Source: a virus. From it: a DNA stretch of 64,000 nt. Numbering within the stretch: the first letter of the stretch is position 1; each line of letters begins with the position of its first letter. The DNA lies in IMG/VR virus record IMGVR_UViG_3300032524_000070; one strand, 5' to 3'. The translations under genes and the position numbers were made by a program. This document shows positions 3,454-63,271 of the stretch, piece after piece. The notes under the pieces are model-generated. The model made no database searches. It was not told the origin of the DNA and worked only from the letters and a program-made list of their open reading frames with translations.

Positions 3454-6400
3454 TGGCTGCATACCCAGAGTTCCGAGGCCCGGACGGCACGCTCCGGCAG
3501 AAGTTCATCCTCTCCACGACCCTCCCGAACCAGGTGTTCACCGGGGCCATGCCCCTCGACACGGTGGACATGCAGGTGTCGGTGCGAGGCGGGACGTACA
3601 CCAGCGACCCCGACTACATCACCTTCGAGGGTACCGGCTTCACGGTCCCCAACCCGTCCGCCTTCCCTGACGGCCTCCAGCTCCTTCCGGGCAGCAACGA
3701 GATCAAGGTCAAGGCCATCCTCTCCACAGGGTCGGTCACGCAGGAGGCAATTCTCCAGGCCAACCTCTCGCTCGAAGCGGACATCGGCGACCTGGCTGAC
3801 CCACCGACCGGCATCTTCTTGGAGCGGTTCAACTCGACGGTCAGGGTCACGGTCGAGGGCCTGACCAACACGAACGTCGCGGGCTACCACTTCTACGCCT
3901 CCACTCAGCCGGGTGGCGGTGACGTGGGCTACTTCCGCATCAACCCCTCGCTGGTCATCTCCGGCGAGGTGGTGGAGGCCACGGACGCCCTGGCGACCCT
4001 CTCGGTCGATGCGAGCATCGTGCTCGACTCCGAGGGCTTCCACGCGGCTGACCCACTGAACTTCCGGTTCCGGGGCACACAGGAGGACAGAGACGACCTG
4101 GTGCTGGGCATCAACTTCGATGAGCTGCTGGAGGTCCCGGAGACGGCCAGCAAGCTCCGCATCGCCACGATCATCCAGACGGTGCGGGAGACCCAGCAGT
4201 ACACCTTCGAGCACGACCGGCAGGCGTCGCTGGAGAGCACTTTCCCTGCTCTGCCACACGCTGATCTGGCGACGGTGCCGGAGGCCGACCCGCTCTACTA
4301 CGTCGCCACGGCCATCCACATCATCAACGGCGAGGAGATCGAGAGCTTCTTCAGCCCGGAGGTGCTGGGGGCTCCCCTGCGGATCACCCCGTCCGTGGGC
4401 TCGTTCCCGCAGGTCACCCGTCAGCAGATGGTCAAGGGAGCCGTCCTGTCCATCTACCGGAGCCAGCCGCAGGTCCGGGTGGACCCGGGCTCAGCTCTGC
4501 GGGACACGTTCATCGACCCCTTCACGACCGAGGCGGATCGTGTCCGGTTCATCATCGACTTCCTGCACAACGCCCAGAGCTTCCCGACGCTGCTGCTCAT
4601 CGACGACCCCGGCTTCACCGGCACGTCGATCCCTGTCGCGCAGTCGTCGTACAAGACGGCCTTGCGGGAGGCGTTCTTCCTGACATCGGACGCCCAGGTC
4701 CAGACGATCATCGACAACGCCTTCGACAAGCTCGCCAGCAACTACGGCGTCATCCGGGACGGCGGCAAGCGAGCCCGAGGCGAGGTCACCTTCTTCGTGA
4801 CCAACCGGCCCACGACCTCCATCACCAAGACCATCGGGACCATCTGCCTGGGTGGTGGGACGACGTTCCGCACGACATCCACTGCTGTCATCTCGCCCAC
4901 GGGAGCCGGACGGAACTTCAACCCGTCCACGGGTCGCTACTTCGGCAGGGCCTTCATCCAGGCAGACGCGGCTGGATCTGCGGGCAACCTGTCCGAGGGG
5001 CAGGTGTCGGTCATCTCCAACAACACGTTGAACGTCCAGGTGACCAACGAGTCCAGGACGTTCGGCGGCACCGACAGGCAGTCGAACCGCGACATCGCTC
5101 TCGAAGCCATGCGGGTCATCGCCTCCGTGGATTCGGGTACCCGCATGGGGTACGTGGACAACGCCATCAAGACGCCGGGCGTCGAGCAGGTGAGCGTCAT
5201 CGAGTCCGGTCACGCCTTGATGATGCGGGACCGCAACGACGCGGGCCGCCACGTCGGCGGCAAGGTGGACATCTACCTGCGGGGCAGCTCCGAGGCCAAG
5301 GTCACGGACTCGTTCGCCTTCGGCTTCCAGACCCGCCAGGCCCAGCAGTTCGAGCCGGTCGGCGACCTGGCGACTCTGCGCTTCCGGGCGGTGGACCCGG
5401 CCCTCTCGGCTGAGAACCCGCTCATCGAGATGCTGGACCTGCCCAGCATCGATCTGGTCTTCGAGAACGCCAGCAAGAGCCTGGTGTTCGACCTGACCGA
5501 CGTGCAGTACGTCGCCTACGACCAGATCCAGCTCGACGCAGCTCTCAACGACCCCACGAGCCATGACCTCGACGACGAGTACCGGGGTAGCTACCGCTAC
5601 CGCACGTCGGACAAGTTCGTGATGACCCGCCAGCCCGTCATTTCGGTGACCAGCTTCGTGGGTGCTCAGACCGGGGCACTGGTCGAGGGCATCTACGACC
5701 TCTACCGGGCGTCCGACCCGCTGGAGCTGGGCCGCTCCACGGACGCAGGCGACTACGTGCAGGTCACGGAGCCTCTGACCTCCGGGGCCACCATCCCCTC
5801 GTCTACGCCGATCACGGTGCCCGGCGAGGCCCACACGATGCTCGACGGCATCGAGTACCTGAACAACCTGGGTGCCAACTTCTTGACGGTCCGGGTGTGG
5901 AACACCGAACGGACCATCGAGTACAACGGCCCCCTCTCGACGGCCATCCGGGACTTCACCATTATCGACGGGACGGAGCGGGTGCCCCTCGGCCTCCAGC
6001 TCACGGACGGCAGCCGCATCGTCGAGGGCCAGTCGGTGCTGGTGGACTACTCGCACGACGAGAACTTCACCATCGAGTACCTGAGCAACGCGGTCGTTCG
6101 GGTCGTCCAGGAGAACATCGACAACGACTCCCACATCACGGCGGACGCCATCGCCAAGTGGGCGGTCGATGTCCCGGTGGACTTCACCGCCACCATCGTC
6201 CTGCTGGCCAACACGAACGCCAACGTGGTGGACGGCCTTGTCCGTACTGCCCTGGCCCGGCTGTTCAACACCTTCGGTCTAGGCACAGCCGTCCGGCAGT
6301 CCGACGTGATTCGCGCGATTGATGCCGTCGTCGGGGTCAGCTACGTCATCACCCCGTTGACCCTCATGGTCCGGGGCGACGGGGCACAGATCGTCCGCGA

Positions 6401-6938: not shown

Positions 6939-8344
6939 TGGCGGACAAGCCTGCCACCCCGAGTCTGCTCCCGACTCTGCTGACGCAGAATCCTGCCCCT
7001 GTGGGCGGGTCGGGTCAGGACCGGATCAAGGCGCGACGCGAGCAGGTGGACAGCATCATGTCTGTCTTCATGCAGGTGCTCCCGTCGAACTACGTCGCGC
7101 AGGTGCAGGGGCCGTTCTACACCGTCCAGTTCCAGGCAGCCGCAGAGGCCATCGCCGACTTCCAGATCACCGCGCAGGAAGCGTTCAGCGACTCCGACTA
7201 CGACTACATGCGCGGCGAGTTCCTGTTTCAGCTCCTCGGCTCCCTGGTCTTCCCCGATGCGACGAGCGATGGCTACCCCACGCTCAAGGGTGACCTGACC
7301 TACCGCGAGTTCCTGAAGCGGATGGTGCTTCTGCTGCTCCAGGGGGCTACCAAGAGCACGGTCGAGGGTGGTCTGGACCTGCTCTCCGAGGCCACGTTCA
7401 CGGTCATCGAGAAGGTCATCGCGGCCCGGGACACCAAGAAGAAGGTCTTCAACAAGGCCCTCGGCATCTACGAGATGCTGCCTGGCTCGGCCTGGGGCCT
7501 GGACGACCAGTTCGAGTTCGAGATCAACGTCTCCTACCTCGACCCGACCACGGGCACGCAGCGGTTCCCCGAAGACCCCTTCATCCTTTCTGAGAACGTC
7601 CGCATCGTCATGCGGGCCTTGAAGCCTGCCCACACCCTCTACGAGTACCGGCACCTCTTCACAGAGGCGTTCGGAGCCATGTTCGACGGCTCTGTCTCCT
7701 GGGACCTGTCGAGCTACTACTACGCCGACTTTCGCCGCTTCTGCTGCGGTGCGAAGAACCTGACGGGGACGGCTGGCATCACCTGGACCGACCGCACGCT
7801 GTTCAGCGACTCGACCCGCGAGTTCACCCAGCTCAAGGCCGGTTCGGATCTGGTCATCACCTCCGGCCCGAACAGCATCCACGTCGGCGGGACGGAAGGC
7901 ACTGGAGCCTCCACAGACCGCCGCCACATCGGTCGCTACCGGGTCGTGGACGTGTTGACCTTCCCGGTAGGCACGGACGCTACCGCGAGGGCCTACACGA
8001 CCTCTGGTGGCCTCTCAGGTACGGCCACGGTGGTCGGGAACGTGGTCGAGGACACGGCTCAGGACTGGAGTGCTGCGGCCAAGGGCGAGACCCTGACCTT
8101 CACGGAGGGGCCGAACGCAGGGACGTACCGGCTCAAGGCTGTGCTGGGCAACTACGGAGGCCCCGTGGGTGAGGCTCCTGGGCCTGGAACACGGGTACAG
8201 GTGGCATCGAGCCTCCTGCGAATCGAACGTCGAATGAAGCAAGCGACATCGGGCCAGAGCTACACGGTGACGGTGGACCGTCTAGGTGTGCAGGAGCCCC
8301 ATGCGGTGGCGGGGGAAGATGCCTCCATCTACTTCGTCCTGTAG
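6938..8344 (+). CDS. putative baseplate wedge protein (gpI/gp7 position)
   Basis: Translationally coupled to J; YREFLKRMVLLLLQGAT and LKPAHT motifs resemble tail protein I-like proteins. Confidence 0.55.
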   Translation: MADKPATPSLLPTLLTQNPAPVGGSGQDRIKARREQVDSIMSVFMQVLPSNYVAQVQGPFYTVQFQAAAEAIADFQITAQEAFSDSDYDYMRGEFLFQLLGSLVFPDATSDGYPTLKGDLTYREFLKRMVLLLLQGATKSTVEGGLDLLSEATFTVIEKVIAARDTKKKVFNKALGIYEMLPGSAWGLDDQFEFEINVSYLDPTTGTQRFPEDPFILSENVRIVMRALKPAHTLYEYRHLFTEAFGAMFDGSVSWDLSSYYYADFRRFCCGAKNLTGTAGITWTDRTLFSDSTREFTQLKAGSDLVITSGPNSIHVGGTEGTGASTDRRHIGRYRVVDVLTFPVGTDATARAYTTSGGLSGTATVVGNVVEDTAQDWSAAAKGETLTFTEGPNAGTYRLKAVLGNYGGPVGEAPGPGTRVQVASSLLRIERRMKQATSGQSYTVTVDRLGVQEPHAVAGEDASIYFVL

Positions 8345-8357
8345 CTGCCAAGAATCA

Positions 8358-8380
8358 GCCTATACGGCGGGGGAAGGTGA
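8358..8380 (+). promoter_or_regulatory. putative late promoter motif, partial copy
   Basis: gcctat-N12-ggtga in intergenic region; lacks the CGGT half. Confidence 0.45.
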
Positions 8381-8407
8381 GGGCCTCGTGCTCCAACGGA
8401 GGATCGA

Positions 8408-11400
8408 ATGCCTGCGGTAATCGAAAGCACCCTGTACGAGTCTCCCGGTGGAGCGGTCGTCGCAGGTTCCACACAGCAGAACAGCCGGGATGATCTCCGG
8501 CTGGGCTACCAGGTCACGCTGAACTCGGTACAGGCGGGCACCACCTACTCGTGGACCCTCGCGTTCGCGTCGGACTCCCCCGGCACGACCGTTGCTGGCA
8601 CCCCGTTCGACGGCACGGACTCCGCATCGTCCCTGCTGCCCCCAGAGGGCAGCACAAGCAAGACCGCGAAGTTCAACGTGGACTTCGAGGGCACGTACCT
8701 CATCCGCCTGACCGTGGACGCTGGACTTCCGACCGAGGACTCGCAGTTCATCCGGGCGAGGGTGCTGACCCTCTTCGGCTCGCTCAAGCTCATCGCGGCT
8801 GGCGAACGACGGGACGAGAACGGCGTCATCCCGGTAGACGCGACCCCCGAGGGGTGGGCGAACGACCAGAACGCGAACATGCAGCGGGTCGCTCTGCTGC
8901 TGCGTCGGGTGTCCCACAGCGGTCGCATCCTGTTCGTGGACAGCAACCGTGGTCGGGACTTCACCGAGGACCAGGACGACTACGACAACGTGATCGCCAT
9001 CCCCGGGCCGGAAGTGGCTCGACCGGAGGCGACGGGCATGAAGTTGCGGGCGATGGCCCACGGCGACTTCTCATCCATCAACCAGGCCATCGCCTACGCC
9101 TCTGCGGCAGCAGCTCGTGGGGAGCCTGCCCCCAGTCAGAATGAGCCGTACTACATCGTGATCCGCAAGGGTCGGTACGCCGAAGACCTGAACCTGGTGC
9201 CCTTCGTCCACCTGGTCGGGGACGACATCACCTTCACCAACATCGACATCAGCTCCGGTGGCCTCGGCAACGTCATCAACTACGGGGTGTCGGTCCAGTC
9301 CGTGAACGTGGCGGGAACGGGTACGCACCGTTTCAACCCGCTGGCGAACGCTGAGAACGCCTGGTGCTTCCTGTTCAACATGGCGTTGCAGGGGTCGGCG
9401 AACACCACGCTGCCGGTCCTCGATCAGCTTGGTGGTGCGATCAAGCTCTTCGGGTGCGCCGTCTTGCAGGATGGCGATGCCGTCAACCAGGGCGAGGCCA
9501 TCCGGTGTGTCGTATCCAACCCGGCTCACACCCCGGCCCTCTGGCTGGAGGACTGCTTCGTCCAGTCCGATGCGACCACGGCTGACCGGGTAGCGGTCAG
9601 GTTCAACGCGACCGGGGGCATCCTCAACCTCATCCACAGCCAGGTCGTCGCGGAGTCGTGCCAGGGCATCGTGGTGAACGAGGCCCTCTACACGGTCTGC
9701 GAGTGCTACGTCCGGGGTGACTCACTCCTCGTTGGAACCCCTCCCTACGTCGGGTACGGCTCGCTTCAGCGGTTCGAGGACTCCACCACCAGTCCAGTGG
9801 GCGGCGGCACTCCCTCCATCAACGTGAGCGCCTTCGGTGGCGGTGCGGGCAGCAAGCCCGGCGATGTCACCCTCGACGTGCAACGGATGACGCTCAACGG
9901 CGTCATCTCCTTCGAGACCGCCGCTGCCGTTGGTTCGACCGTGCTGGTCAACTCCGGCAACGTGAACCGTCTCGGCGGGGCGACCCCCCACGTCCTCCTG
10001 CCGGACGCTCCGGGCGACCTGCCGAACCTCTCCATGCCCATCTTCGACGGGGAGTCGGTCGGCTACCTGCCGAACCACTCCGATCCCCTGCTGGGCCCCG
10101 GTGGTCCGACGACCATCAACGCCGCCAACCAACTCCAGAAGCGGAACCTCCAGGAGGTCGTAGACCGCATCCTGCTGGGCGTCTTCCCCGTCGTCGGGAG
10201 CCCCTTCTACTCGCTGCACACGGCCTACAGCGGCCTGGCGTCCCTCAACCCGCCGACGCTGGGCACCGGGCTCGGGCGGACCATCATCGCCAACGGTGGT
10301 GCGGTCCAGATCACCGGAGGCACGGCCCCGTTCGCTCTTGACGCAGAGCGGAAGGATGGTGGTCTCCAGACCGAAGGCGTCATCGACATCGGCGGGCTCA
10401 TCGGTGGAACGGGCTCTACCCCTCTGGCCTTGGTCGGGCACTCGGAGATCCACCTCAACCCGAACATGATGGGCGTCGGCCCCGTCATCGCCCTTGGACG
10501 AGCTGCCTGGACCACTGGCGTCAACGGTGGCGACCGGGGCTTCCCGGCTGCCGTCATCCGTGCGGACTCCGCGACAGCCCCGGCACTTCCGACTTTGTCG
10601 CCCTACCACATCCACCTCCGCACGCTTTCGGGGAAGAACTCGAACACGGGTGGGCTCGGGAACATCTACATCGCTGCTGGCGGCATCACAGATCCAGCCA
10701 GCGTTGACAACCCGGGCCATGTCCACATCAACGGCGGTGGGCACCTCAATGCAGGTGCCGGGAGCACAGGCGACATCTGGCTCGCTCCTGGTGACCTGTT
10801 CGGAGCAGCGGGGTTCGGCAAGGTCTGGTTCGCCGGAACGAACGGCACTCCGGCGAGTCTGACGGCTGCTGGCCCCTGGATCGGAGGCACCGCTGGGGTC
10901 ATCACCATCGGTACGCCGAACGGCGTGGAGTTCTTCACCTTCACGGGTGCTGAGGCCAACGTCGCGGCAGCCACCGCCTTGTTCAACGCGACGGCCAGGG
11001 CCTTCATCGCTACCGACGATGGTGCCACCATCACGCTCATCGCCAACCCCAGCCCGGCCAGCGACATCGTGTGCCTCGGGGACGATGGCAGCGGGGTGAA
11101 CGTCAACCTCGGTGACTTCCTTCCGGCAACGGCGACGTTCACGCCCGGAACCTACGGCGACCTGATCTCCGTGGACGTGCCGGTGAACGGTCGTCTGCGG
11201 GTGAACGGTGACCTCCAGGTCACGGGAGCCATCATCGGGACGGTGGCTCCGGCCTACCGGGCGATCACCGGGGCTGACGCCTACCCGTATCCCTCGCTGG
11301 CGACTGAGCTGATCCTCGGGGCACAGCTCGTGGCCACCCTGGACCGCACCATCGTCCTCAACCCGGCCTACCCCATCGGAACCACGGTCGTCGTCAAGGA

Positions 11401-51729: not shown

Positions 51730-52961
51730 GCAACAAGAAGGACAACCGCCCGGACATCAAGCAGGAACATCCCCTGCTCGACTTCCCACAGGGCAACGGC
51801 GATGCAGACTGCCCCAAGTGCAAGGGTCGGGGCGTGGTCCCGGTGATGGTGGACCTTGGCGGCGGGAAGATGTGGCCCGGTGGGGGGACGCAGAACTGCG
51901 ACTGCATGTTCAAGCGGGACCTGATCGCCAACGTCAAGCGGGTCTGGAAGGTGTTGATGAACGTCGAGTCCGCCGAGGACTCGCCCCTCCTCGCCATGAC
52001 CAACCAGAACCTCTGGATCACGGCTTCCAACTACGATCTCCGGCGGCACCTCCGCTACGTCGCCTTCCGCATGGGGACCCGGTGGGACGCACGGGTCATC
52101 GCTGACGCCACCCTGGTCACCGCATGGCTCTCCAGCGTCAAGGACGTGTTCGACGCCGACGTGCTCCTGGAGCGCGACGGGTTCAACCGGGAGCGTCCAT
52201 CGGAGCACTACTTCACCCTGGTCGATCTGGCCGTGCCCTTCGACCTGCTCATCATCCGGCTCGGGGTGAAGGCAGCGAAGAACCGTGAGATGCCGAACGT
52301 GCTGGCAGAGGCGGTCAACGAGCGGGAGCAGCAGGGCAAGCCGACGTGGATCGTGGACTCCCCCATCAAGCCGCTGGCTCCGGGGCACATTTGCTACAAC
52401 GATGCCGTCGTGGAGATGCTGGACGGCTTCCGCCGAGTCATCCTCTCCGATGGGGCACACGTCCCCGCTGGCGTGACGACAGCAGCACAGCAGTACAAGG
52501 CCCCCAGGAGGGCAGGAGCGACCGCAGGAGCGGCTGATGCGACTCCGGCCTCGCCGTACACCCGCAGGAAGGCTGGGATGGCCCAGACGGCTCCTGCGAC
52601 CTCTCCGGCGGCCCCTCCACCGGAGCCAGTGGGCAACATGCCGATGGACGACTACGAGGGGGACCCTTCCGAGGTCTCCCTGGCCGACGACGACGAGTTC
52701 AGCGTGGATTCACTCCTCGCAGACGCCCACACCCCGCAGCTCACGGATGGTGGCGAGGGTTTGATGCCAGAGGATGAGGTCAACGTGGAGGAGCTGTTGG
52801 AGGACTTCCCGACCGCAAGCGAGCTGGGCGGCAACGCGAGGGAGCTGCCGTCGTTCCTGCGTGGGGCACTGACGAAGGATGACCGGCAGGCCAAGGAGAA
52901 GCAGGACAAGCGGCAGAAGCAACGGGACAAGAAGTTCGGGCCGAAGGGGGGTGGCCGATGA
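51726..52961 (+). CDS. Zn-finger plus degenerate DnaC/IstB-like protein (helicase-loader position)
   Basis: CPKC...CDC, DLLIIRLG, KPTWIVD; no intact Walker A seen; immediately upstream of DnaB. Confidence 0.45.
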   Translation: MSNKKDNRPDIKQEHPLLDFPQGNGDADCPKCKGRGVVPVMVDLGGGKMWPGGGTQNCDCMFKRDLIANVKRVWKVLMNVESAEDSPLLAMTNQNLWITASNYDLRRHLRYVAFRMGTRWDARVIADATLVTAWLSSVKDVFDADVLLERDGFNRERPSEHYFTLVDLAVPFDLLIIRLGVKAAKNREMPNVLAEAVNEREQQGKPTWIVDSPIKPLAPGHICYNDAVVEMLDGFRRVILSDGAHVPAGVTTAAQQYKAPRRAGATAGAADATPASPYTRRKAGMAQTAPATSPAAPPPEPVGNMPMDDYEGDPSEVSLADDDEFSVDSLLADAHTPQLTDGGEGLMPEDEVNVEELLEDFPTASELGGNARELPSFLRGALTKDDRQAKEKQDKRQKQRDKKFGPKGGGR

Positions 52962-54514
52962 AGTCTCTACTGCGGTCCCTGTTCATCGGCGATGCGGGCG
53001 ACAACGAGCAACTGCTCCTGAACAACTACCAGTTGTTCAACGGGTCGGGGCTCGGGTTCGACGTGCCCGAGTACAACGCGATCTGGAAGTACATCCAGGA
53101 GTTCGTGCGGACGCACAATCACGTCCCGGCCATCCTGACCATCCGGTCGCACTTCGAGTACGGCAAAGAGGACAGCGTCCTTGACCAGTTGAAGAACCTG
53201 GAGGGGTTGAAGGCCCGGACGAAGGGCGACTTCCAGGGTGTCCTCGAAGACCGGGCGAACGACCGGCGGCAGCGGTTGTGGTCGGAGGCTCTCAAGGAGG
53301 CGTCGATCATCACCTCGACCGGCATGGAGGTGCAGGAGGGTCGGGAAAAGAAGCTGCTCATCGGGCCGGTGATGTCGGCCCGCTACCTGATGGACAAGGC
53401 CCACGACGTAGTGGCTCCGACCATCGGTGGTCGGCTCTCCGGCGAGGTGACCAAGGACGGAGTGGCGGTCAAGGAGGAGTACGAGCGGGTGGAGAGTGAC
53501 CCGCTGGCAGGCATCGGGCAGTTCGCGTTCCTTGACCAGATGGACCGGGCGCTCGGTGGGGCGAAGCGGCACGAGCTGTGGATTCACGCGGCCTTCACGG
53601 GCGGGATGAAGTCCACGTTCATGCTGAACTGGGCCTACAACCAGGCGGTCATCTACGGGCACAACGCCCTGATCTTCTCGCTGGAGATGCCGTACAGCCA
53701 GTGCCGTCGCATCCTCTACGCCATCCATTCGATGCACCCGAAGTTCCGTGAGATTCGGATGCGGTTGGGGCTCCAGCAGGATCTCGACGGCGACGTGGGC
53801 CTGTCGTACACGGAGATCCGGGACGGGAAGCTGAGTGGCCCGGCCAAGCGGTTCTACTTCGACTTCGTGATCCCGGACTTCAACGGGACCGACGTGGTCA
53901 AGCACCCGTACCTGGACTGCGACTACGGGAAGATCCACATCGAGGTAGCCGACCCCGACAAGGACGACTTCACGATGCACGATCTCCGGTCGATGGCCGA
54001 GATCATCTACTCCAAGGAACCCTTCTCGATGATCTTCGTGGACCACTGCGGGCTGATGAGCCCCCGGCGGCACCGCAACAGCACCACCGAGAACTTGAAC
54101 GAGGTCATCCGCGACCTCAAGAAGCTGGCCCTAGGCTTCAACCGGGGCATGGGCATCGCCGTCGTGGGCCTCTTCCAGATCAGCCGCGAGGGGTACAAGA
54201 GCGCCCTCAAGGCCAAGGAGAAGACGGGCAAGGCGGGCTACAACCTGACCCACCTGTCCTACGCCAACGAGGCCGAGCGGTCGTCCGACGTGGTGACCTC
54301 GACCTGGATCGACGAGGACTTGAAGAACCAGAGCCGGGTGCAGTTCAACTGCCTCAAGTCCCGCGACCAGGCTCCGTTCGACCCCTTCATCGCGCGGGTA
54401 GAGTGGCCCTGTCGTCGCCTGCTCTCCTGTTTCGAGGTGGCCCGTACCCCGGAGGAGAACGCCAAGATGGGGGCCGAGATCGACAAGGCAGGCAAGGAGC
54501 TGGACGACGATTGA
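52958..54514 (+). CDS. DnaB-like replicative helicase
   Basis: AFTGGMKST (Walker A variant), IFSLEMP, IFVDH, LFQISR, ERSSDVV, KSRD. Confidence 0.85.
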   Translation: MKSLLRSLFIGDAGDNEQLLLNNYQLFNGSGLGFDVPEYNAIWKYIQEFVRTHNHVPAILTIRSHFEYGKEDSVLDQLKNLEGLKARTKGDFQGVLEDRANDRRQRLWSEALKEASIITSTGMEVQEGREKKLLIGPVMSARYLMDKAHDVVAPTIGGRLSGEVTKDGVAVKEEYERVESDPLAGIGQFAFLDQMDRALGGAKRHELWIHAAFTGGMKSTFMLNWAYNQAVIYGHNALIFSLEMPYSQCRRILYAIHSMHPKFREIRMRLGLQQDLDGDVGLSYTEIRDGKLSGPAKRFYFDFVIPDFNGTDVVKHPYLDCDYGKIHIEVADPDKDDFTMHDLRSMAEIIYSKEPFSMIFVDHCGLMSPRRHRNSTTENLNEVIRDLKKLALGFNRGMGIAVVGLFQISREGYKSALKAKEKTGKAGYNLTHLSYANEAERSSDVVTSTWIDEDLKNQSRVQFNCLKSRDQAPFDPFIARVEWPCRRLLSCFEVARTPEENAKMGAEIDKAGKELDDD

Positions 54515-56358
54515 TGCCCGCCCTGATCACCATCCACATGGCCCGTAAGCCCCTCGACGGGACGGTGGCGGGCAACGCCCTCAAGCACGGCACCGGCTCC
54601 CTCAACATCGGGGACACCCGGTTGGGGCACACGGAGACGTTGGAGTTCCTGGCGAAGCGGTCAGGCCGTCCAGCGGGCAATGCGTGGGCCGACATGGGCT
54701 TGAACGGCAAGCCTTCCAGCTACACGCCCGACGCCAAGGGTCGGTGGCCCGCGAACGTCATCTTCCAGCACGCAGCGGGGTGTCGGTGCGAGGGGACGAA
54801 GCGGGTGACCGGGACCGGGATCGCTATCGGACATCGAGGGGTTCGGGATAGTCATCTCTACGGGAAAGGGCTGGGGCATCTCCCCGAAGGCACCCCCGAC
54901 CTTGGCTATGCCGACCCTGATGGCAAGGAGGCCGTCGAGGACTGGATCTGCGCTCCCGGCTGCCCTGTGGCCGATCTCGACGAGCAGAGCGGGGAGCGGA
55001 AGACCACCTGGGTAGCCCCCGAACATGGCAACAATCGCTCCGGGGAGTTCATGGGTGCCCTGGGCCATCCGGGACAGCAGGGCTTCAACGACACGGGTGG
55101 GGCGTCCCGATTCTTCAAGCAGGTCACGACAGATGAGGAGGCACCGATGCCTGACTTGACGACGATCCACATGGCCCGCAAGCCCCTCGATGGCACCGTC
55201 GCGGGCAACGCCCTGAAGTACGGCACCGGGAGCCTCAACATCGGGGACACCCGGATCGGGGGTGAGGGAGGCACCTGCCGGACCGGGCGGGCCACCACGC
55301 CGACACCGCAGGGGTGGGCCAACATGGGCGGGCACGACATCGAATCCCTGAACGAGGGGCGGTGGCCCGCCAACGTCATCTTGGAGCACCTGCCCGGCTG
55401 CAAGCTCGTCGGCTCCCACCACGAGAGCTTCGACATCAACGTCTACGACGGCTCCACTCAGGGCAACTACCGCTCCTACAAGGCGTCTGATGGTCCCCTG
55501 CCCGAGAAGCTGGGGTCGGTCGAGAACGGCCAGACGGTCGATGAGTGGGAGTGCGTCGAAGGCTGTCCGGTCGCCGACATCGACGAGCAGAGCGGGGTCA
55601 CGGTAGCCAAGCGGAGTGGCCGAGGGGTCGGGTACACCGACAGCCCGGTCTACCACCCCGGAGGTCCGGGAGCTGCGGAGTTCGATACCGTCCGAGGGTT
55701 CGACGACAAGGGTGGGGCCTCGCGGTACTTCAAGCAGGTTCAAGGGGATCAGGACATGGCTGCTTTGACCGTCGCCCACATGGCTCGCAAGCCCCTCGAC
55801 GGCACCGTGGCCGAGAATGCTCTCAAGCACGGGACGGGGAGCCTGAACATTGACGGCACCCGGATCGGTGGCCCCAAGCCTGATACGACTCGTGGTGCAG
55901 GTGGGCAGCATGGGATCACGAGCCCCCGTGGGGAGCAGGGGCGGATTCTCGATGACGGGCAGGGCCGGTGGCCCGCGAACGTGGTCCTGGAGCACCTGCC
56001 AGGTTGCAAGCTGAAGGGGACGCTACGGGTACGTCCCCAGGGCGGGTCTGGTCGAGCTGGCCCTGGCAGTCGGGGCTTTCAAGATGCCTACGTCGGTGGC
56101 GAGAAGCGGGCTGAAGGGTTCACCGGGGGGCAGGTGGGTGATGACGGCAAGGAAGAGGTGGAGCGGTGGGTGTGCAAGCCCGGCTGCCCGGTGGCGGACA
56201 TTGATGAGCAGAGCGGGGTGCTGAAGAGCGGGGCCATGAGTGCAGAGGTCCAGCGTGGCTCCTTCGGTCAGTATGGCGTCTACGGCAAGGCCGATGGGTC
56301 TGGCGTCGGCACGGACTACAAAGCAACGGAGGGTGGGGCCTCCCGATTCTTCAAGCAG
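54514..56358 (+). repeat. three tandem ~600-630-bp coding repeats starting at 54514, 55147 and 55756
   Basis: Conserved blocks separated by unrelated variable segments. Confidence 0.95.
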
Positions 56359-57132
56359 GGGCAGTCCACCGACCTCATCGCGTACCTCCTGACGATGGCC
56401 TCGACCCCGGACGCCACGGCGTACTTCGTGGACACGGAGCACTGGCCGGAGCACGACAAGGACTGGCCGGACGGCTCCATCTGCGGCTTCGTCGTCCAGG
56501 GCAAGGTGACCCAGTGGCACGTGGACGAGTTCATGCGCCTCCTGCCCCCCGGCGGGCACATCTTCCTCATCGCCCCGGACGAGCAGCCGACCGGGCACAC
56601 CGGGGCGATCCTCTTGGAGGACAGCGGCTTCGAGATCCGGGACGCCATCCTGCTCGTGAAAGGCCCTGGGCGGACGCACTACGTCGCAAAGGCCGGGCGT
56701 CGGGAGCGGGAGGCAGGCTGTGGCAACCTGACCGGCAAGGCCGGACACGAGGCGGTCGAACGGGCAGAGGGGTCAGCAGGGGTGGACAACCCTCGTGCTG
56801 GAGCTGGCCGGACGGCTGATCACGTCAAGAACTTCCACCCGACCGTGAAGCCCGTCGAGGTGATGGAGCGGCTGCTCGCCGACGTGCCCAAGGACCAGGG
56901 GCCGGTGCTCGACCCGTTCATGGGGAGTGGGACGACGGGGATCGCCTGCTCGAAGACGGGGCACAGCTTCATCGGCATCGAGCGAGACCCGGAGTACCTG
57001 GAGATCGCGGACGCCCGAGTGCGCTACTGGGACCGCACCCACGTCGGCTGGCAGGGGGCTGAGATCGAGTCGGACCACAAGGTCAATGAGCCGGAGCCAG
57101 AGGCGATGGACCTGATGGACTTCTTCGCATGA
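54514..57132 (+). CDS. beta-class N4/N6 DNA methyltransferase C-half: three tandem middle modules, degenerate catalytic half, SAM-binding motif
   Basis: 3x (MARKPLDGTVA.NALK.GTGSLNI...GRWPANV...GCPVAD.DEQSG...GGASR[FY]FKQ); then HPTVKP and VLDPFMGSGTTG; no DPPY. Confidence 0.85.
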   Translation: MPALITIHMARKPLDGTVAGNALKHGTGSLNIGDTRLGHTETLEFLAKRSGRPAGNAWADMGLNGKPSSYTPDAKGRWPANVIFQHAAGCRCEGTKRVTGTGIAIGHRGVRDSHLYGKGLGHLPEGTPDLGYADPDGKEAVEDWICAPGCPVADLDEQSGERKTTWVAPEHGNNRSGEFMGALGHPGQQGFNDTGGASRFFKQVTTDEEAPMPDLTTIHMARKPLDGTVAGNALKYGTGSLNIGDTRIGGEGGTCRTGRATTPTPQGWANMGGHDIESLNEGRWPANVILEHLPGCKLVGSHHESFDINVYDGSTQGNYRSYKASDGPLPEKLGSVENGQTVDEWECVEGCPVADIDEQSGVTVAKRSGRGVGYTDSPVYHPGGPGAAEFDTVRGFDDKGGASRYFKQVQGDQDMAALTVAHMARKPLDGTVAENALKHGTGSLNIDGTRIGGPKPDTTRGAGGQHGITSPRGEQGRILDDGQGRWPANVVLEHLPGCKLKGTLRVRPQGGSGRAGPGSRGFQDAYVGGEKRAEGFTGGQVGDDGKEEVERWVCKPGCPVADIDEQSGVLKSGAMSAEVQRGSFGQYGVYGKADGSGVGTDYKATEGGASRFFKQGQSTDLIAYLLTMASTPDATAYFVDTEHWPEHDKDWPDGSICGFVVQGKVTQWHVDEFMRLLPPGGHIFLIAPDEQPTGHTGAILLEDSGFEIRDAILLVKGPGRTHYVAKAGRREREAGCGNLTGKAGHEAVERAEGSAGVDNPRAGAGRTADHVKNFHPTVKPVEVMERLLADVPKDQGPVLDPFMGSGTTGIACSKTGHSFIGIERDPEYLEIADARVRYWDRTHVGWQGAEIESDHKVNEPEPEAMDLMDFFA

Positions 57133-57875
57133 GCCACGTCATCACCCTCCGGCTCGGCGACAGCTTCGAGGTGCTCAGGGAGCTGCCCGAGGGCTCTGTG
57201 GGGGCTGTGGTCTGTGATCCGCCCTACGGTCTGGAGTTCATGGGGAAGGCCTGGGACAAGCTCGACAACGAGGCATCGTCCCTACAGGGGATCGTGGACC
57301 CTGTGGAGTGGAATCAAGGTGAGTCCAACCCCTACAGTCGCTCCCGCATCCGAATGGGGGGTGCCGCTTACGGGACAGCGGCAGGGCAGGCTGGTCGTGC
57401 CATGCAGGAGTGGCATCGGGGCTGGCTCCGGGCCTGCTACCGGGTCCTCCAGCCGGGCGGGATCATCAAGGCGTTCTCGGCAACCAGGACGTTCCACCGG
57501 CTCGCAGCAGCGATGGAGGATGCGGGATTCTTGTTGCCCCCCGAGCACAGCCTCGAAGCCTGGGGATACGGGTCCGGGTTCCCGAAGTACCTCAACACCA
57601 GCAAGGCCATCGACAAGTTCATGGCGGGTGTGCCCCACGGAGGGCCTGACCCGACGAGCCCCAACCACGGCAAGTACAAGACGCAGGCCACGGAGGGGAA
57701 GCGCAGCGACAGTGATCAGGGTCAGGGCTTCGGAGCCGGGCCGGGATCGTTCATGCGGGAGGCTGGGATCCTGGACCACCACGAGGCGACGACCCCGGAG
57801 GCCGCTCAGTTCGAGGGATGGGCCACGGCCTTGAAACCAGGGTGGGAACCCTTCATCGTGGGGATCAAGCCGTGA
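57129..57875 (+). CDS. DNA methyltransferase N-half 1 (catalytic DPPY, no SAM-binding motif I)
   Basis: LGDS, CDPPYGLEFMGKAWD, RVLQPGG, YGSGFPK; ends ALKPGWEPFIVGIKP. Confidence 0.85.
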   Translation: MSHVITLRLGDSFEVLRELPEGSVGAVVCDPPYGLEFMGKAWDKLDNEASSLQGIVDPVEWNQGESNPYSRSRIRMGGAAYGTAAGQAGRAMQEWHRGWLRACYRVLQPGGIIKAFSATRTFHRLAAAMEDAGFLLPPEHSLEAWGYGSGFPKYLNTSKAIDKFMAGVPHGGPDPTSPNHGKYKTQATEGKRSDSDQGQGFGAGPGSFMREAGILDHHEATTPEAAQFEGWATALKPGWEPFIVGIKP

Positions 57876-58657
57876 GCCACACCCTCATCCTCCGACTCGG
57901 TGACTGCACGGAGGTTCTCAAGGGGCTACCCGAGGGCTCCCTGGGGTCCATCGTGACCGATCCTCCCTACGGTCTGGAGTTCATGGGCAAGGAGTGGGAC
58001 GCTCCGTGGAAGACCGGGGCCGGGATGACGATGCCAGGCATCGGTGAACGAGCGATCCCCTGGCCCGCCTACGGTGGCAGCACCCCATTCGGCGGGGCGA
58101 ACCCCTCGTGCCAGACCTGCGGAGGTCGTCTCCGTGGAGCCAAGAAGTGCTCCTGTGAGGAGCCCGACTGGCGGGTAGCAGGAGAGGTCGTGGCTGACGG
58201 CATCCGCCACGGGGTCAGTGAGGCGGTTGTCCAGCGGCAGAAGTTCCAGGCGTGGTGTGTGACCTGGCTGGTGGAGTGCCATCGGGTGCTTCAGCCTGGC
58301 GGCATCATCAAGGTCTTCGGGGCCACACGGATGTTTCACCGGATGGCTGCCGCGATGGAGGAGGCGGGATTCTTGCTGCCGCCGGAGCACAGCCTCGAAG
58401 CCTGGGCCTACGGGAGCGGGTTCCCCAAGTACCTCAACACCTCGAAGGCCATCGATCAACATCTCGGCAAGAGCGATGAGCGGCCTGTGCTCGGCCGGGT
58501 GAAGGGGGCGGCTTCATCGAACACGGAGTCGCTCGGGGCCTACAACCCCGAGTACGACGCCACCACTGCCGCGACCCCGGAGGCAGCTCAGTTCGACGGG
58601 TACGCGACCGCTCTGAAGCCGGGCTGGGAGCCCTTCATTGTGGGGATCAAGACCTGA
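57872..58657 (+). CDS. DNA methyltransferase N-half 2 (catalytic DPPY, no SAM-binding motif I)
   Basis: GTG start; LGDC, TDPPYGLEFMGKEWD, CQTC...CSC insert; ends ALKPGWEPFIVGIKT. Confidence 0.85.
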   Translation: MSHTLILRLGDCTEVLKGLPEGSLGSIVTDPPYGLEFMGKEWDAPWKTGAGMTMPGIGERAIPWPAYGGSTPFGGANPSCQTCGGRLRGAKKCSCEEPDWRVAGEVVADGIRHGVSEAVVQRQKFQAWCVTWLVECHRVLQPGGIIKVFGATRMFHRMAAAMEEAGFLLPPEHSLEAWAYGSGFPKYLNTSKAIDQHLGKSDERPVLGRVKGAASSNTESLGAYNPEYDATTAATPEAAQFDGYATALKPGWEPFIVGIKT

Positions 58658-58756: not shown

Positions 58757-58795
58757 GCCATGTACAACTAGGGGTTCATCCCCGGAAAGGTGTCC

Positions 58796-59956
58796 ATGAG
58801 CACTCACACGGCCCGTCAGAGCAAGAAGGCCATCCACGATTGGTTGGGGGTGCTGAACGCCATCCCCAGCACCGCCGTTACCACGGGCACGGTCCACATC
58901 ACCCCCGGGGACATCATCCGGGTGGATGAAACCCCGGCACTCCCGGGGATCAAGGACAAGTACCTGATCGGAGTGGAACAGCAGCGCACGTTGAACGTGG
59001 GGGCCGCCAGGAAGCTCCTGTCCAGCTTCCAGGACACCGCGCCCCACATCACCAGCGAGCTGACGCTGTGCAGGCCCCTGGCGGACCCCACCAACATCTA
59101 CGTCCCCGATGGCCAGACGCGCTTGCTGGCCCTGCTGCTCGGCCCGATGAGCAAGAGCTTCCGATTCACCATGTATGACGGGGTCACCCCGGAGCAGATG
59201 GTGGCCCTGTTCGAGCTGAACTCCTACCGGCGCAACACGTCCACCACGGACCGGATCTCGCTGCACCGTCACGACTCGCCCGTGTTCCAGCTCTCCAAGA
59301 CCCCGGATGAGCAGCTCAACCCTGTGTTCCGGCTGGTGCTCAAGGGGAACAAGACGGCTAGTCACCCGCCCAGGCTGAGCTGGATCGAGATGCTGGCGGG
59401 CTGGACCCTGGGGATGAACGGCAACGGAGTCCCCTCCTACCGGGCTCGCGAGGCCGCTGGCCGAGCCGCTTCGGCGTCCGGCTGGAACATGGACAAGGTG
59501 GAGCGGGTGTACCGCTCGGACGCCGGGATCCAGGCGTACCGGGACACCGAGCGGATGATCGCGGCGGTGCAGTTGGCGGCGCACCTCGCGCATCCGGTCA
59601 TCGTCGGGACGGACCGGGGCACCCTGAGCGACGTGGGGAAGGCTGTGGCCGCCCGGATGGCCACCTACGAGGCTGACAAAGCCAAGCCCTTCTGGCAGGC
59701 CGTACTGACCAACCCGAACCGCCGCGTCCACTCGTCCTTCTGGAACACCACGATGCTGCGCATCCTCTTCTGCCTGGTCCACGACAACGGCTGGGACGCG
59801 GTCTATCGGCGTCTGCCCTGGTTGGTGCGGGACATCGGCTCGATGGAGACGAAGCAGGGCTACACGTCGGGGACCGCCCCGCATCTGCGGGACCTCGTGG
59901 AGGACAACATCAACTACAACGCCCGGAGCGGAGCCATCAAGTTCCTGACCACCTGA
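58796..59956 (+). CDS. ParB/DGQHR-like domain protein
   Basis: QQRTLN...YVPDGQTRLLAL...ALFELN. Confidence 0.55.
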   Translation: MSTHTARQSKKAIHDWLGVLNAIPSTAVTTGTVHITPGDIIRVDETPALPGIKDKYLIGVEQQRTLNVGAARKLLSSFQDTAPHITSELTLCRPLADPTNIYVPDGQTRLLALLLGPMSKSFRFTMYDGVTPEQMVALFELNSYRRNTSTTDRISLHRHDSPVFQLSKTPDEQLNPVFRLVLKGNKTASHPPRLSWIEMLAGWTLGMNGNGVPSYRAREAAGRAASASGWNMDKVERVYRSDAGIQAYRDTERMIAAVQLAAHLAHPVIVGTDRGTLSDVGKAVAARMATYEADKAKPFWQAVLTNPNRRVHSSFWNTTMLRILFCLVHDNGWDAVYRRLPWLVRDIGSMETKQGYTSGTAPHLRDLVEDNINYNARSGAIKFLTT

Positions 59957-60767: not shown

Positions 60768-61669
60768 AGCCACTCAAAGGCGTCGGGGTCGCCCAGTTTG
60801 ATGCCGTCCCCCCGGCACCACGCGACTGCCGGGGAAGTCGCAAAACCCACCAGCGGGCGCTCCAGCGAGTTCAGCCACCCATCCGGCATCGCCACGTGCC
60901 CGTGCAACCGGGTCAGAGCCTTGGAGCCCGTGGAGAGGGTGACTGGATGAGGCCACCCGTGCTTGACCTGCTCGTTCCACATCCGGTCGAAGCGGCCTTG
61001 CGGGGTCGGAGGCCCGTTGTGGCGGACGCCCATCCAGACGGTCTTCGTCTTGCCGTCCACCCTGGCACGCCCGAGGTAGACCCTCTGCTCGTTCGATCCG
61101 AAGGTGTTGAACTGGTAGACCCCGCCGACCACCAGATCCTTGACGGGGATGACGACCACCTTGGTCTTCGCGGCCTTCGTGGCGGCCTTCACCTGGGGCA
61201 CTTCGTCAGCCGGGGTGTAGAGTGCATGGGCCTTCGACCCGACCCGCTCCAGGCGGATCTGGCTGCCGTTGACGCACCACTGGAAGGTGGCCGGGATGAT
61301 GCCGCTCTTCGGCAGGCCTTCCCGCAGGAGGAGGGGCAGGAACACGTCTTCCCGCAGGTCCACGAGGTAGCCCTCGGGGGTGATGACCTTCCAGGCCCGA
61401 CCACCCTCGCCCCGCTGCTCGGCGTTGATGACGCGGTAGCTGTCCTTGGGGGTGTTCTCGACTTCGATGCCCTTGAGGCGGGAGTCGTCAGGGCGGGGGT
61501 GATACCCGGCAGCCCAATGCTGTGCGTTCTCGACGGTCTTCGCACCCCTGGCTACGAGCTGGTCGGAGACGGGGAATGCCATCCGGGCCTGGAACGTCCC
61601 GGCGGGGCTGGTGTGCGTGCCTTCGTTCCGGCAGAAGAACACGACCTTCTGTGGGATGTAGCCCTTCAT
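60764..61669 (-). CDS. hypothetical phage protein
   Basis: 301 aa, coupled; EQRGEGGRAWKVITPEGYLVDLREDV. Confidence 0.65.
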   Translation of the reverse strand: MKGYIPQKVVFFCRNEGTHTSPAGTFQARMAFPVSDQLVARGAKTVENAQHWAAGYHPRPDDSRLKGIEVENTPKDSYRVINAEQRGEGGRAWKVITPEGYLVDLREDVFLPLLLREGLPKSGIIPATFQWCVNGSQIRLERVGSKAHALYTPADEVPQVKAATKAAKTKVVVIPVKDLVVGGVYQFNTFGSNEQRVYLGRARVDGKTKTVWMGVRHNGPPTPQGRFDRMWNEQVKHGWPHPVTLSTGSKALTRLHGHVAMPDGWLNSLERPLVGFATSPAVAWCRGDGIKLGDPDAFEWL

Positions 61670-62427
61670 TCGTCGGCCTCCGGTTCGACTTCGTTGTCGT
61701 CATCATCCAGCGTGCGAATCTTGCCGATGGGGGCCGGAGCTTCGTAGCCCTCGGGCTTTTTGAGGAAGGCAGCCTCCAGGAAGTTCGGGACCAGGAGGCA
61801 GTGCTCGATCAGGTTGAGGTTGCGGCGGATGTACCCCTGTCGCTGCTCATCCGTGAGCCATGGGGTGCGTCGTGCGAGCCTGTGGCAGTCGATGATGAGA
61901 CGGTCGATGGCGGCGTGGCGGTCGCGGCTCTCGTTGGGGTTGGAGTGCCACATCTGCTCGGTGGCCTCCTTCAAGGCCACCTTGTCGAAGCCCTTGGAGC
62001 CGTCGCACACGATGAGGCGGCACCACATCTCGCCGTAGTCCTTGGTGGAGTCGTCGATGATGATGAACGGCGTGCCGATCAGGTCGTTCCAGATGAGGTA
62101 CTCACGGATGGGGTGGCCCCCGCCCGCGTTGCTGCTGGTCTGGCCCACCAGCACCTCCGGGTGCTTGAACCCCGCCGCCGTGAACATCGCCTTCATCTCG
62201 TCCAGCGTGTTCGTGTTCCATGCCGTGTTGAACACGACCTGTGCATCGAAGCGGTGCCTCTGGAGGAGTTGCCCGAGGTGCCCCACGAGTTCCGGGTTCA
62301 GTTCCCCGTGGTGCGGGCCACCGTGCTTGTTGCACACCCCGTCGATGTCGAGGAACACGAGCAGCTTCGTCGCCCCGTATCGGGCGGTCGGGGGCGGCTG
62401 CCAGGTGGTCGGCGGTTGTGGGGTCAC
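61666..62427 (-). CDS. HAD-superfamily phosphatase (Swiss-army-knife RNA repair-like HAD)
   Basis: VFLDIDGVCN motif I, FNTAW motif II, FIIIDD motif IV. Confidence 0.75.
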   Translation of the reverse strand: MTPQPPTTWQPPPTARYGATKLLVFLDIDGVCNKHGGPHHGELNPELVGHLGQLLQRHRFDAQVVFNTAWNTNTLDEMKAMFTAAGFKHPEVLVGQTSSNAGGGHPIREYLIWNDLIGTPFIIIDDSTKDYGEMWCRLIVCDGSKGFDKVALKEATEQMWHSNPNESRDRHAAIDRLIIDCHRLARRTPWLTDEQRQGYIRRNLNLIEHCLLVPNFLEAAFLKKPEGYEAPAPIGKIRTLDDDDNEVEPEADE

Positions 62428-62939
62428 AGGGAGTCCTCTGAACCGAGGCAGAGGGAGCCTCGGAGGTCGAAGTTGGCGTAGAACTCAGCGTCCGGCGAGC
62501 AGGAGACGTAGCCGGGCTTGAGTCCGGTGCCCTGCAATCCATACGCGCTCAGGGTGCCTAGCAAGGCCCCCTCGCTTCGCTTCAACCACGCGATGACCAG
62601 CGGGACGGTGAAGTCCCCGTGGGTCAGGACGCGGAGGGCCGCGAACAGGCGGTCGAGCTTGATGGTCTTGAAGGGCGGGTCGAAGACGATGAGCTTCGGC
62701 TTGAAGGACAGCGGCTCCGGGTGGTGGATGTCCCACGCTTTGAACCAGGGGGCACCCTCGAACCGGGTGTCGATGTCGAGCACGGTCGGGGGTCGGACCT
62801 TCCGCTTCTCGGCCATGTACTCCCCGAGACGGGGGCAGCAGAGGGCGACGGCATGGTGATGCTGCCAGACGAGCTGCCCGAGCCGGGCGAGCGTCGGCTC
62901 ATCGAACCAGTATTGCTCTCGCTGGTGGTCCTCTTCCAT
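62424..62939 (-). CDS. Efm5/EEF1AKMT1- or ZCCHC4-like (N6-adenineMlase family) methyltransferase
   Basis: EDHQREQYWFDEPT, ALCCPRL, LDIDTRF, WDIHHP, IVFDPPF. Confidence 0.65.
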   Translation of the reverse strand: MEEDHQREQYWFDEPTLARLGQLVWQHHHAVALCCPRLGEYMAEKRKVRPPTVLDIDTRFEGAPWFKAWDIHHPEPLSFKPKLIVFDPPFKTIKLDRLFAALRVLTHGDFTVPLVIAWLKRSEGALLGTLSAYGLQGTGLKPGYVSCSPDAEFYANFDLRGSLCLGSEDSL

Positions 62940-63271
62940 CACTCGGCCTTGAAAGCGTTGGCGTTCGACAGGACCCAGATCTCCTCACGTCCGTTGTCGG
63001 AGCCGATGGCGATGGTGTAGTCCGGTCCCACCAACAGGTAGGGCTTGGCCTCCTGTTGCTGCTCGACCGCGCTGTAGTCCGGGTCGTCACCCGGGTCGGT
63101 CAGGACGTGCCCGACCGGCCAGATGCCGAGGTCTCCGTACTGACCGATGGTCCAGGGGCGGTCGGTGTAGTCGATGATGCCGAGGTGGGGGTAGTCATCG
63201 TCGGCTGCGACGTGATCGAAGACGGCAGACCGACCGGCCTTGATGTTGAACAGGGCATTGAGCAGGGGCAT
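62939..63271 (-). CDS. hypothetical protein
   Basis: MPLLNALFNIK...; GGGAG RBS; coupled to the next gene. Confidence 0.6.
   Translation of the reverse strand: MPLLNALFNIKAGRSAVFDHVAADDDYPHLGIIDYTDRPWTIGQYGDLGIWPVGHVLTDPGDDPDYSAVEQQQEAKPYLLVGPDYTIAIGSDNGREEIWVLSNANAFKAE

Follow-up and report, generated by a model that had tools for sequence, protein, structure and literature searches.

A three-gene phage locus with the features of a split, modular beta-class DNA amino-methyltransferase

The stretch of DNA analysed here, which we call the window, is DNA of 64,000 nucleotides (nt) from the IMG/VR virus record IMGVR_UViG_3300032524_000070, and the element in question is a set of three consecutive genes on its plus strand. 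Phage methyltransferases of the family to which these genes belong are known as single chains in which a catalytic N-terminal half (N-half), a middle module (M) and a C-terminal half (C-half) that binds the cofactor S-adenosylmethionine (SAM) follow one another. On the strength of sequence comparison and structure modelling, we consider it probable that the three genes encode one heteromeric and possibly multispecific beta-class amino-methyltransferase. It would belong to a phage family that is widespread, for the most part unannotated, and distinguished by an N-M-C chain cut into interchangeable parts. Since both catalytic halves carry DPPY, the modified base is probably N6-adenine. The set, hereafter the kit, comprises a large protein (the body) and two small proteins (N-halves A and B); the segment of the body that resembles an N-half but has no DPPY is termed the pseudo N-half, or N*. 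The kit and its upstream neighbour are laid out as follows (aa, amino acid residues).

52958..54514, plus strand: DnaB-like helicase gene, the conserved neighbour upstream of the kit.
54514..57132, plus strand: body gene, encoding 872 aa (P0001) in the order M1-M2-M3-N*-C, with an ATG that overlaps the stop of DnaB (ATTGATG).
54514..55146, plus strand: module 1, aa 1-211, with ARKPL, GRWPAN, an H..C / W.C..GCP zinc-type set and SRFF.
55147..55755, plus strand: module 2, aa 212-414, with an in-frame ATG start, GAGGAGG ahead of it and a 5-nt spacer.
55756..56349, plus strand: module 3, aa 415-612, with an in-frame ATG start and AAGGGGA ahead of it.
56350..56739, plus strand: N*, aa 613-742, the pseudo N-half, with VVQGKV for DPPY.
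56740..57132, plus strand: C-half, aa 743-872, with HPTVKP (motif X region), DPFMGSGTT (motif I) and FIGIERD (motif II).
57129..57875, plus strand: N-half A, 248 aa (P0002), with DPPY at residues 30-33; ATGA overlap with the body stop.
57872..58657, plus strand: N-half B, 261 aa (P0003), with a GTG start and DPPY; GTGA overlap with the stop of A.

An earlier note on this DNA, made from the letters alone, had described three tandem ARKPL-to-SRFF modules, an N-half without DPPY and the C-half motifs in the body, followed by two coupled DPPY paralogs that end at the same point without motif I. All of these were found where the note had placed them. In the body, three units of about 205 aa follow one another, and in each of them unrelated sequence separates the shared motifs: ARKPL at aa 10, 221 and 424, GRWPAN at 76, 282 and 484, GCPVAD at 149, 350 and 557, and SR[FY]F at 198, 403 and 610. 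Downstream of the modules, ICGFVVQGKV replaces the DPPY strand, and RLLPPGGH, LEDSGFEIRD, HYVAKA, HPTVKP and DPFMGSGTT are present. N-halves A and B both have DPPY, neither has motif I, and both end at ALKPGWEPFIVGIK[P/T] (ALKPGWEPFIVGIKP/T; ..WEPFIVGIKP in A and ..WEPFIVGIKT in B). As the note had also observed, no single polypeptide of the window holds both DPPY and the SAM motif: motif IV is found solely on the two small proteins, and motifs X, I and II solely on the body. The stop and start codons overlap as ATGA and GTGA, so that all three genes are translationally coupled. No additional copy of any kit part was found within the 64-kb window.

The Pfam family PF01555 matched the C-half of the body (aa 773-832, 71.2 bits) and the start of each N-half (A, 29.7 bits; B, 30.8 bits), all above the cut-off of 26.7. 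Among protein structures in the PDB, the sequence of the C-half matched the C-terminal parts of M.BceJIV, CcrM and DpnA (E 5e-13). The kit as a whole has the marks of the beta class, namely PF01555 above the gathering score, motif IV, and motif I with X and II. The order of a beta-class single polypeptide (IV-VIII, target-recognition domain (TRD), X, I-III) was not found, as motifs IV and I lie on different products and the gene order is permuted. Judged from its sequences, the kit would be an assembly that functions in the manner of the beta class without being one of its standard single-chain enzymes.

Among its closest described counterparts are the single-chain orphan methylases of actinophages and prophages with an ARKP...GRWP.N...SRFF middle region (PF01555, phrog_67/3008), such as Rajelicia gp60, Quico gp82 and CactusJack gp53 of Mycobacterium phages, which have the same motifs and the same N-M-C order as the kit. 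The one-chain norm assumed by the earlier note is borne out by the first two of these proteins. The single-chain enzymes consist of one polypeptide with one module and no N*, whereas the kit is cut exactly at EPxxV(A/G)xKP, the window proteins breaking exactly between EPIVV and ARKPL. The DNA order of the window (M-M-M-N*-C, N, N, with the pseudo N-half) is likewise unlike that of the single-chain actinophage enzymes.

The cut is not peculiar to the window. When 5.8 billion proteins were searched with N-half A and the best 120 matches were examined, 99 were proteins of 150-300 aa that had DPPY, lacked motif I and ended within a few residues of ..WEP..VG.K. Both signs of the split kit are present in the window: a free DPPY half ending in ..WEP..VG.K, and a cofactor half preceded by a DPPY-less pseudo N-half. 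DPPY was invariant across 90 aligned N-halves and is absent from the body, and D-P-F-G-S-G was invariant across 45 aligned bodies; HPTVKP, DPFMGSGTT and FIGIERD are confined to the body. Bodies in which N*-C follows one or more modules are frequent in metagenomes: with module 3-N*-C as the query, many more of them were obtained, together with unattached N*-C proteins (about 260 aa) and forms that carry inteins. When module 2 was used against 1.84 billion cluster representatives, 6563 proteins were obtained at E<=1e-3. Of the best 150, 58 were modules standing alone, about 200 aa long; the others included bodies of the types M-N*-C, M-M-N*-C and M-M-M-N*-C as well as ordinary N-M-C enzymes. Because phmmer at times splits one module into two matches, which overstates counts of multi-module architectures, we name as multi-module only proteins with full-length repeats: P0127 (899 aa), another body with three full modules, and P0132, P0135, P0138, P0129 and P0130, single-chain enzymes with two to four modules. 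The body alignment was also run against prokaryote genomes, one for each species, and the 80 loci obtained were mostly generic C-halves or single-chain prophage enzymes, with at most 56% identity in the best segment.

The DPPY-less segment of the body had been taken by the earlier note for a decayed N-half, and this is the one part of its description that did not hold. N* is conserved in all 45 aligned bodies and the same segment occurs in the free-standing N*-C proteins, so that recent decay does not account for it. In a profile-profile comparison, N* matched the N-half family with 91% probability (E 1e-6). By sequence, N* is best described as a homologue of the true N-half and a fixed part of the split design rather than a decayed remnant.

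N-halves A and B are 58% identical, and a quick IQ-TREE maximum-likelihood tree of the N-halves, in which all 90 alignment rows were kept, places them on separate major branches. On these two grounds a recent tandem duplication was rejected as the origin of the pair; A and B represent lineages of long standing that have come together in one locus. N-half B carries a zinc-ribbon insert (CxxCGGRLRGAKKCxC) after motif IV, at aa 80-95 (window 58100-58150). The insert was found in 23 of the 90 free-standing N-halves; its distribution is patchy and implies at least seven gains or losses on the tree. We also considered a split intein joining an N-half to a module, which was rejected because no intein blocks were found at the C-terminus of the N-halves or at the N-terminus of the body.

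The order DnaB, body and N-half(s) was kept in seven other loci (L001, L004, L007, L008, L009 and two more), in which the counts of modules and N-halves vary; conserved synteny with a variable module number had been named in the earlier note as a sign worth looking for. In L004, from a marine phage of 55% GC, the body has one module, and of the two N-halves one carries the zinc ribbon and the other lacks it, as in the window. L001, L007, L008 and L009 are relatives from the window's own lineage. L001 and L008 have two modules and one N-half, against three modules and two N-halves in the window; L007 has three modules and one N-half; and in L009 two modules and N*-C are each encoded by a free gene, alongside one N-half. 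Between the window and L001 or L008, the flanks are 93% identical up to 54621, and then identity collapses over the modules, which cannot be aligned beyond their motifs. N*-C is 74-78% and the N-halves are about 77% identical, and from 60037 onwards identity is back at 82-84%. The first modules of the window and of L001 are only 46% identical, and module 2 of the window is 63-69% identical to modules in L001, P0126 and P0277. The two free modules of L009 (3775-4395 and 5354-6004) are near-identical up to ..STKGRWP and unrelated beyond, which looks, from the sequences, like partial replacement of a module by recombination; a D12-class (Dam-like) methylase gene (4395-5366) lies between the two.

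Ratios of nonsynonymous to synonymous substitution rates (dN/dS, Nei-Gojobori) were 0.18-0.26 for N*-C, 0.33-0.57 for the modules, and 0.41 for N-half A versus B, the paralogue values being rough because dS was near saturation (about 1); the DnaB control gave 0.15. All are below 1, which points to purifying selection on the kit. The earlier note had suggested selection rather than decay from the two N-halves ending at one point, and the same cut in 99 of 120 homologues, the conserved synteny and the dN/dS values agree with it. The arrangement is neither unique, given P0127 and single-chain N-M-M-C enzymes, nor neutral, with dN/dS between 0.18 and 0.57.

The N-halves of L001, L007, L008 and L009 are interrupted at the same place, between G and S of AWxYGSGFPK, by inserts at L001:9439-10440, L009:6771-8333, L007:4505-5514 and L008:7378-8390. 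Those of L001 and L009 show clear intein ends (CLSEDT...(V/I)TGN, before the S); N-halves A and B of the window are uninterrupted. Inteins usually invade conserved sites in working proteins, and the shared site fits a conserved site of a working protein. The L001 insert contains an HNH_3 open reading frame (ORF) in another frame (9569-10381), recalling the "hidden HNH" ShiLan element of PMC11855218. A second peculiarity was observed in the same N-half gene, at L001:8960-9010 (compare window 57962-57985), where DPPYG (..TAC GGT) is followed by 14 extra nt opening with a TGA stop (TGACCATACCTGGA) and then by CTG GAG TTC ATG. DPPYG-LEFMGK would be restored exactly if the ribosome passed from GGT directly to the GGA 11 nt downstream. 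From its sequence, this insert is a candidate for a ribosomal bypass like that of T4 gene 60, or else an assembly error. It lies just downstream of a minus-strand ORF (8068-8922) with a ..EFNGTFWHADPR.. motif of a kind known from endonuclease families; the ORF had no Pfam match.

The association of the separate halves was then assessed by complex prediction, which the earlier note had proposed for the N-halves and the large protein. N-half A was modelled with module 3-N*-C, using our own alignments of 90 N-half and 45 body sequences. The interaction prediction score from aligned errors (ipSAE) was 0.83, and the best of three controls gave 0.00; 58 of 80 solved complexes, but only 2 of 110 mismatched pairs, score as high, figures that apply roughly here since our own alignments were used. 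Three runs shared at least 68% of contacts, and the predicted local distance difference test (pLDDT) of the partner was at least 66. In the model, body residues 378-380 (VLD before PFMGSG) lie beside N-half residues 25-29 (AVVCD before PPY), and body residues 399-402 (FIGI, the motif II strand) lie beside N-half residues 5-8. N* residues 273-279 contact N-half residues 123-127, which are equivalent positions of the homologous halves in the profile alignment; the model suggests that this contact is pseudo-symmetric. The modelled N-half A also touches the invariant module motifs ARKP, GTVA.N, GTGSLNI, GRWPAN and SRFF. The modelled strand order is that of an intact beta-class fold, in which motifs IV and I would meet in trans. 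Taken together with the widespread cut and the synteny, the complex model and its controls support the heteromeric split methyltransferase that the earlier note had put forward.

The modules occupy the place that belongs to the target-recognition domain in beta-class enzymes, and they were compared in an alignment of 58 sequences. Fourteen columns were invariant, including an H/C/C/C set that resembles a zinc site; modules 1, 2 and 3 each keep all 14, and the loops between them are unrelated. Three loops between the invariant motifs are hypervariable, cannot be aligned and have low model confidence. There is no Pfam model for the module, and the clusters listed for it in the ESM Atlas are all viral and labelled "hypothetical protein". 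When module 2 was folded by itself on the 58-sequence alignment, the model was poor (pLDDT 62.5); VIA, run exhaustively over 48,161 PDB chains, found nothing at Z>=2, which with so poor a model is uninformative on the fold. Modules 2 and 3 open with in-frame ATGs at 55147 and 55756, preceded by GAGGAGG and AAGGGGA. In L001, GAGGA stands ahead of the ATG of module 2; in L007, the module joints are plain linkers without Met, so that internal starts are not general. The internal ATGs possibly reflect internal initiation, or are a trace of once-separate module genes.

From these data we propose the following mode of action. The small N-half is predicted to dock on the body with its DPPY strand beside the FxGxG strand and its N-terminal strand beside motif II, and the docking is predicted to rebuild a normal active site in trans. 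N* would act as an adaptor that packs on the true N-half via equivalent helices and anchors a module. Each module would be a zinc-stabilised target-recognition unit, whose invariant motifs dock and whose three hypervariable loops read DNA. With three modules and two anciently diverged N-halves sharing one cofactor half, several motifs could be methylated, and the most likely use would be to shield replicating phage DNA from host restriction. Multispecific and combinatorial action is plausible, and an anti-restriction use can reasonably be inferred, from the position of the module in the fold, the hypervariable loops and the turnover of modules. A more specific version, which we offer only tentatively, divides the labour. 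The true N-half and the C-half would make up the catalytic unit; N* with a module would serve recognition, standing in for the second protomer of a beta-class dimer. Any module and any N-half might then be slotted in, giving up to six specificities, and phages might re-tune the enzyme by swapping, fusing and freeing modules.

The enzyme could also be split and working yet have a single specificity, the modules being structural or dimerisation repeats, or only the module adjacent to N* being used; the extra modules and the second N-half would then be redundant or in the course of loss. It agrees with such an arrangement that each chain has only one C-half, that the complex model places module 3 only, and that a lone module folds with low confidence and resembles no DNA-reading domain known so far. 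We nevertheless regard it as unlikely. All three modules keep the 14 invariant columns with unrelated loops between them, module sets differ between phages with 93%-identical flanks, and dN/dS is below 1; moreover, modules occur as free-standing genes in L009 and in numbers of two to four in single-chain enzymes.

The structure of the body bears on a different explanation, in which the body is a self-contained pseudo-enzyme: N* and C would form a dead SAM-binding fold that is bound to DNA via the modules as a regulator or a shield, and the N-halves would be separate, with another role or none. HMMER indeed aligned body aa 671-835 collinearly with whole N4C methyltransferases (8s9m), N* is truly homologous to the N-half, and dead partners such as METTL14 and MTA9 are known in the class (PMC7544214). 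In the AlphaFold2 model of the body alone (pLDDT 77.5; predicted template modelling score (pTM) 0.71), N*-C was mostly above 90 in pLDDT, and the three variable module loops were below 50. The C-half superposed on the C-terminal parts of M.RsrI, CcrM and M.BceJIV with a root-mean-square deviation (rmsd) of 1.8-3.2 A, and VIA gave 1.8-2.0 A over 77-84 residues to M.BceJIV and M.RsrI; N* superposed separately on the second halves of other Rossmann methyltransferases. However, N* and C were never superposed together on the canonical fold: no structural alignment spanned both, and the long alignments of Foldseek had an rmsd of about 20 A. The models suggest that N* leaves the position of the catalytic half free for a true N-half, which would remove the apparent paradox of a C-half already paired in cis. 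The complex model in fact sets the DPPY strand of the true N-half beside motif I. Furthermore, the two partners always occur together, one with invariant motifs X, I and II and the other with an invariant DPPY, and inteins target the N-half. A pseudo-enzyme is therefore, in our judgement, quite unlikely.

That the locus is wreckage, i.e. a rearranged or duplicated methylase gene in decay or an artefact of metagenome assembly, is highly improbable: although it is a recombination hot spot with mobile elements in its relatives, and the window is metagenomic with no cultured relative, the same products occur on three to four independent contigs, all reading frames are intact and translationally coupled, and the identical cut point recurs in about 100 homologues with conserved synteny and purifying selection.

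Several points weigh against the split, exchangeable enzyme that we favour. One C-half must serve three modules and two N-halves; the tandem modules may take turns, reach into neighbouring complexes or be produced as shorter isoforms. The complex model covers N-half A with module 3-N*-C, and passing such a test indicates fit to the fold, not binding, because a split gene can pass by its likeness to solved single-chain enzymes. The free position for the catalytic half is drawn from predicted models, and the paralogue dN/dS values are rough, as noted above. The module as a DNA reader rests on its position and variability, because its lone fold is poor and no structural match was obtained.

The window derives from a metagenomic, myovirus-like phage of 65% GC, and the methylase locus lies within a replication block whose products include two helicases, one SNF2 and one DnaB-like, as well as a sheath initiator and a baseplate J protein. 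The exact 872-aa body product is present on four metagenome contigs, the longest of 142,590 bp (a phage of about 142 kb). No close cultured relative was found, as Megablast against 50,697 phage records gave only motif matches of 52-57 nt. The DnaB-like helicase gene of L009 (L009:1-3563) carries two LAGLIDADG inteins according to Pfam, and that of the window has none. Directly after N-half B, at 58790-59956 on the plus strand, lies a 388-aa ORF that is absent from L001 and L008 and had no match in Pfam, PHROG, NCBIfam or PADLOC; its PDGQTRLLAL stretch is reminiscent of DGQHR/ParB-like motifs. A second, unrelated methyltransferase-like gene (PF10237, N6-adenineMlase, E 1.8e-14) is located at 62424-62942 on the minus strand. 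It adjoins a HAD_SAK_2 gene (61666-62427), and the pair is conserved in L008 and L009.

The kit was compared with known systems. M.AquI and M.EcoHK31I are natural two-subunit C5-cytosine (C5) methyltransferases. In these enzymes, as in split M.HhaI and M.SssI, the active site is formed from two polypeptides sharing the conserved motifs, as proposed for the kit; all are C5 enzymes with one copy per half and have no alternative halves, modules or pseudo-half. By analogy, M.AquI and M.EcoHK31I may be regarded as the nearest natural split enzymes. The nearest functional analogy is probably with the multispecific C5 methyltransferases of Bacillus phages SPR, phi3T, rho11s and H2, which were reportedly studied by Trautner and colleagues; each of their TRDs, of about 40-50 aa, is said to have been shown experimentally to have its own specificity. 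In enzymes of the SPR/phi3T type, tandem target-recognition units sit on one catalytic core, and the enzymes are regarded as a counter to many host restriction systems; the kit likewise has three tandem modules, in which DNA recognition is inferred. Unlike the kit, enzymes of this type have C5 chemistry and fold, one chain, no split and no pseudo-half; C5 fold or motifs were not found in the kit, in which the only matches were to PF01555 amino-methyltransferases. With HsdS of Type I restriction-modification systems the kit shares the separate encoding of the catalytic domain and of exchangeable recognition domains. Neither the sequence nor the fold of HsdS is related to the kit; HsdS has the gamma-class HsdM as its partner and is part of a restriction complex.

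Within the beta class, a 2020 review describes the complete-fold heterodimers METTL3-METTL14 and MTA1-MTA9 and the division of labour in dimers, and cites the multispecific C5 phage enzymes (its refs 86-87); split enzymes are not discussed in it (PMC7544214). In METTL3-METTL14, MTA1-MTA9, EcoP15I Mod2 and the CcrM dimer, a catalytic unit is joined by a related, non-catalytic, substrate-binding unit (PMC7544214), an arrangement that N* and N may mimic. Partners of the METTL3-METTL14 type are both complete folds, whereas the kit fuses the cofactor half to a dead half and keeps the live catalytic half separate. The single-chain actinophage methylases were described by Gosselin et al. 2023 as the PopTart_63/Dorothy_75 family (PMC9957025), which hosts inteins and hidden HNH elements (PMC9957025, PMC11855218); neither paper mentions split or tandem-module forms. 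When full texts were searched for split or two-component methyltransferases, the sole examples obtained were engineered C5 enzymes, M.HhaI and M.SssI (PMC3404938, PMC3439449). In the literature searched, we found no description of the split methyltransferase family, only of its single-chain relatives.

If the parts assemble as predicted, the kit would be a natural modular DNA amino-methyltransferase with exchangeable catalytic halves and with recognition modules that are either fused or free. It would explain thousands of unannotated "hypothetical" phage proteins as free modules, and also the "truncated methylases" of metagenomes. The window is useful in this respect because three modules are fused to its body and two near-identical phages carry different sets, which amount to natural swap experiments. 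For the phages themselves, the kit would represent a new route of escape from restriction, and it would offer a ready-made scaffold for programmable methylation.

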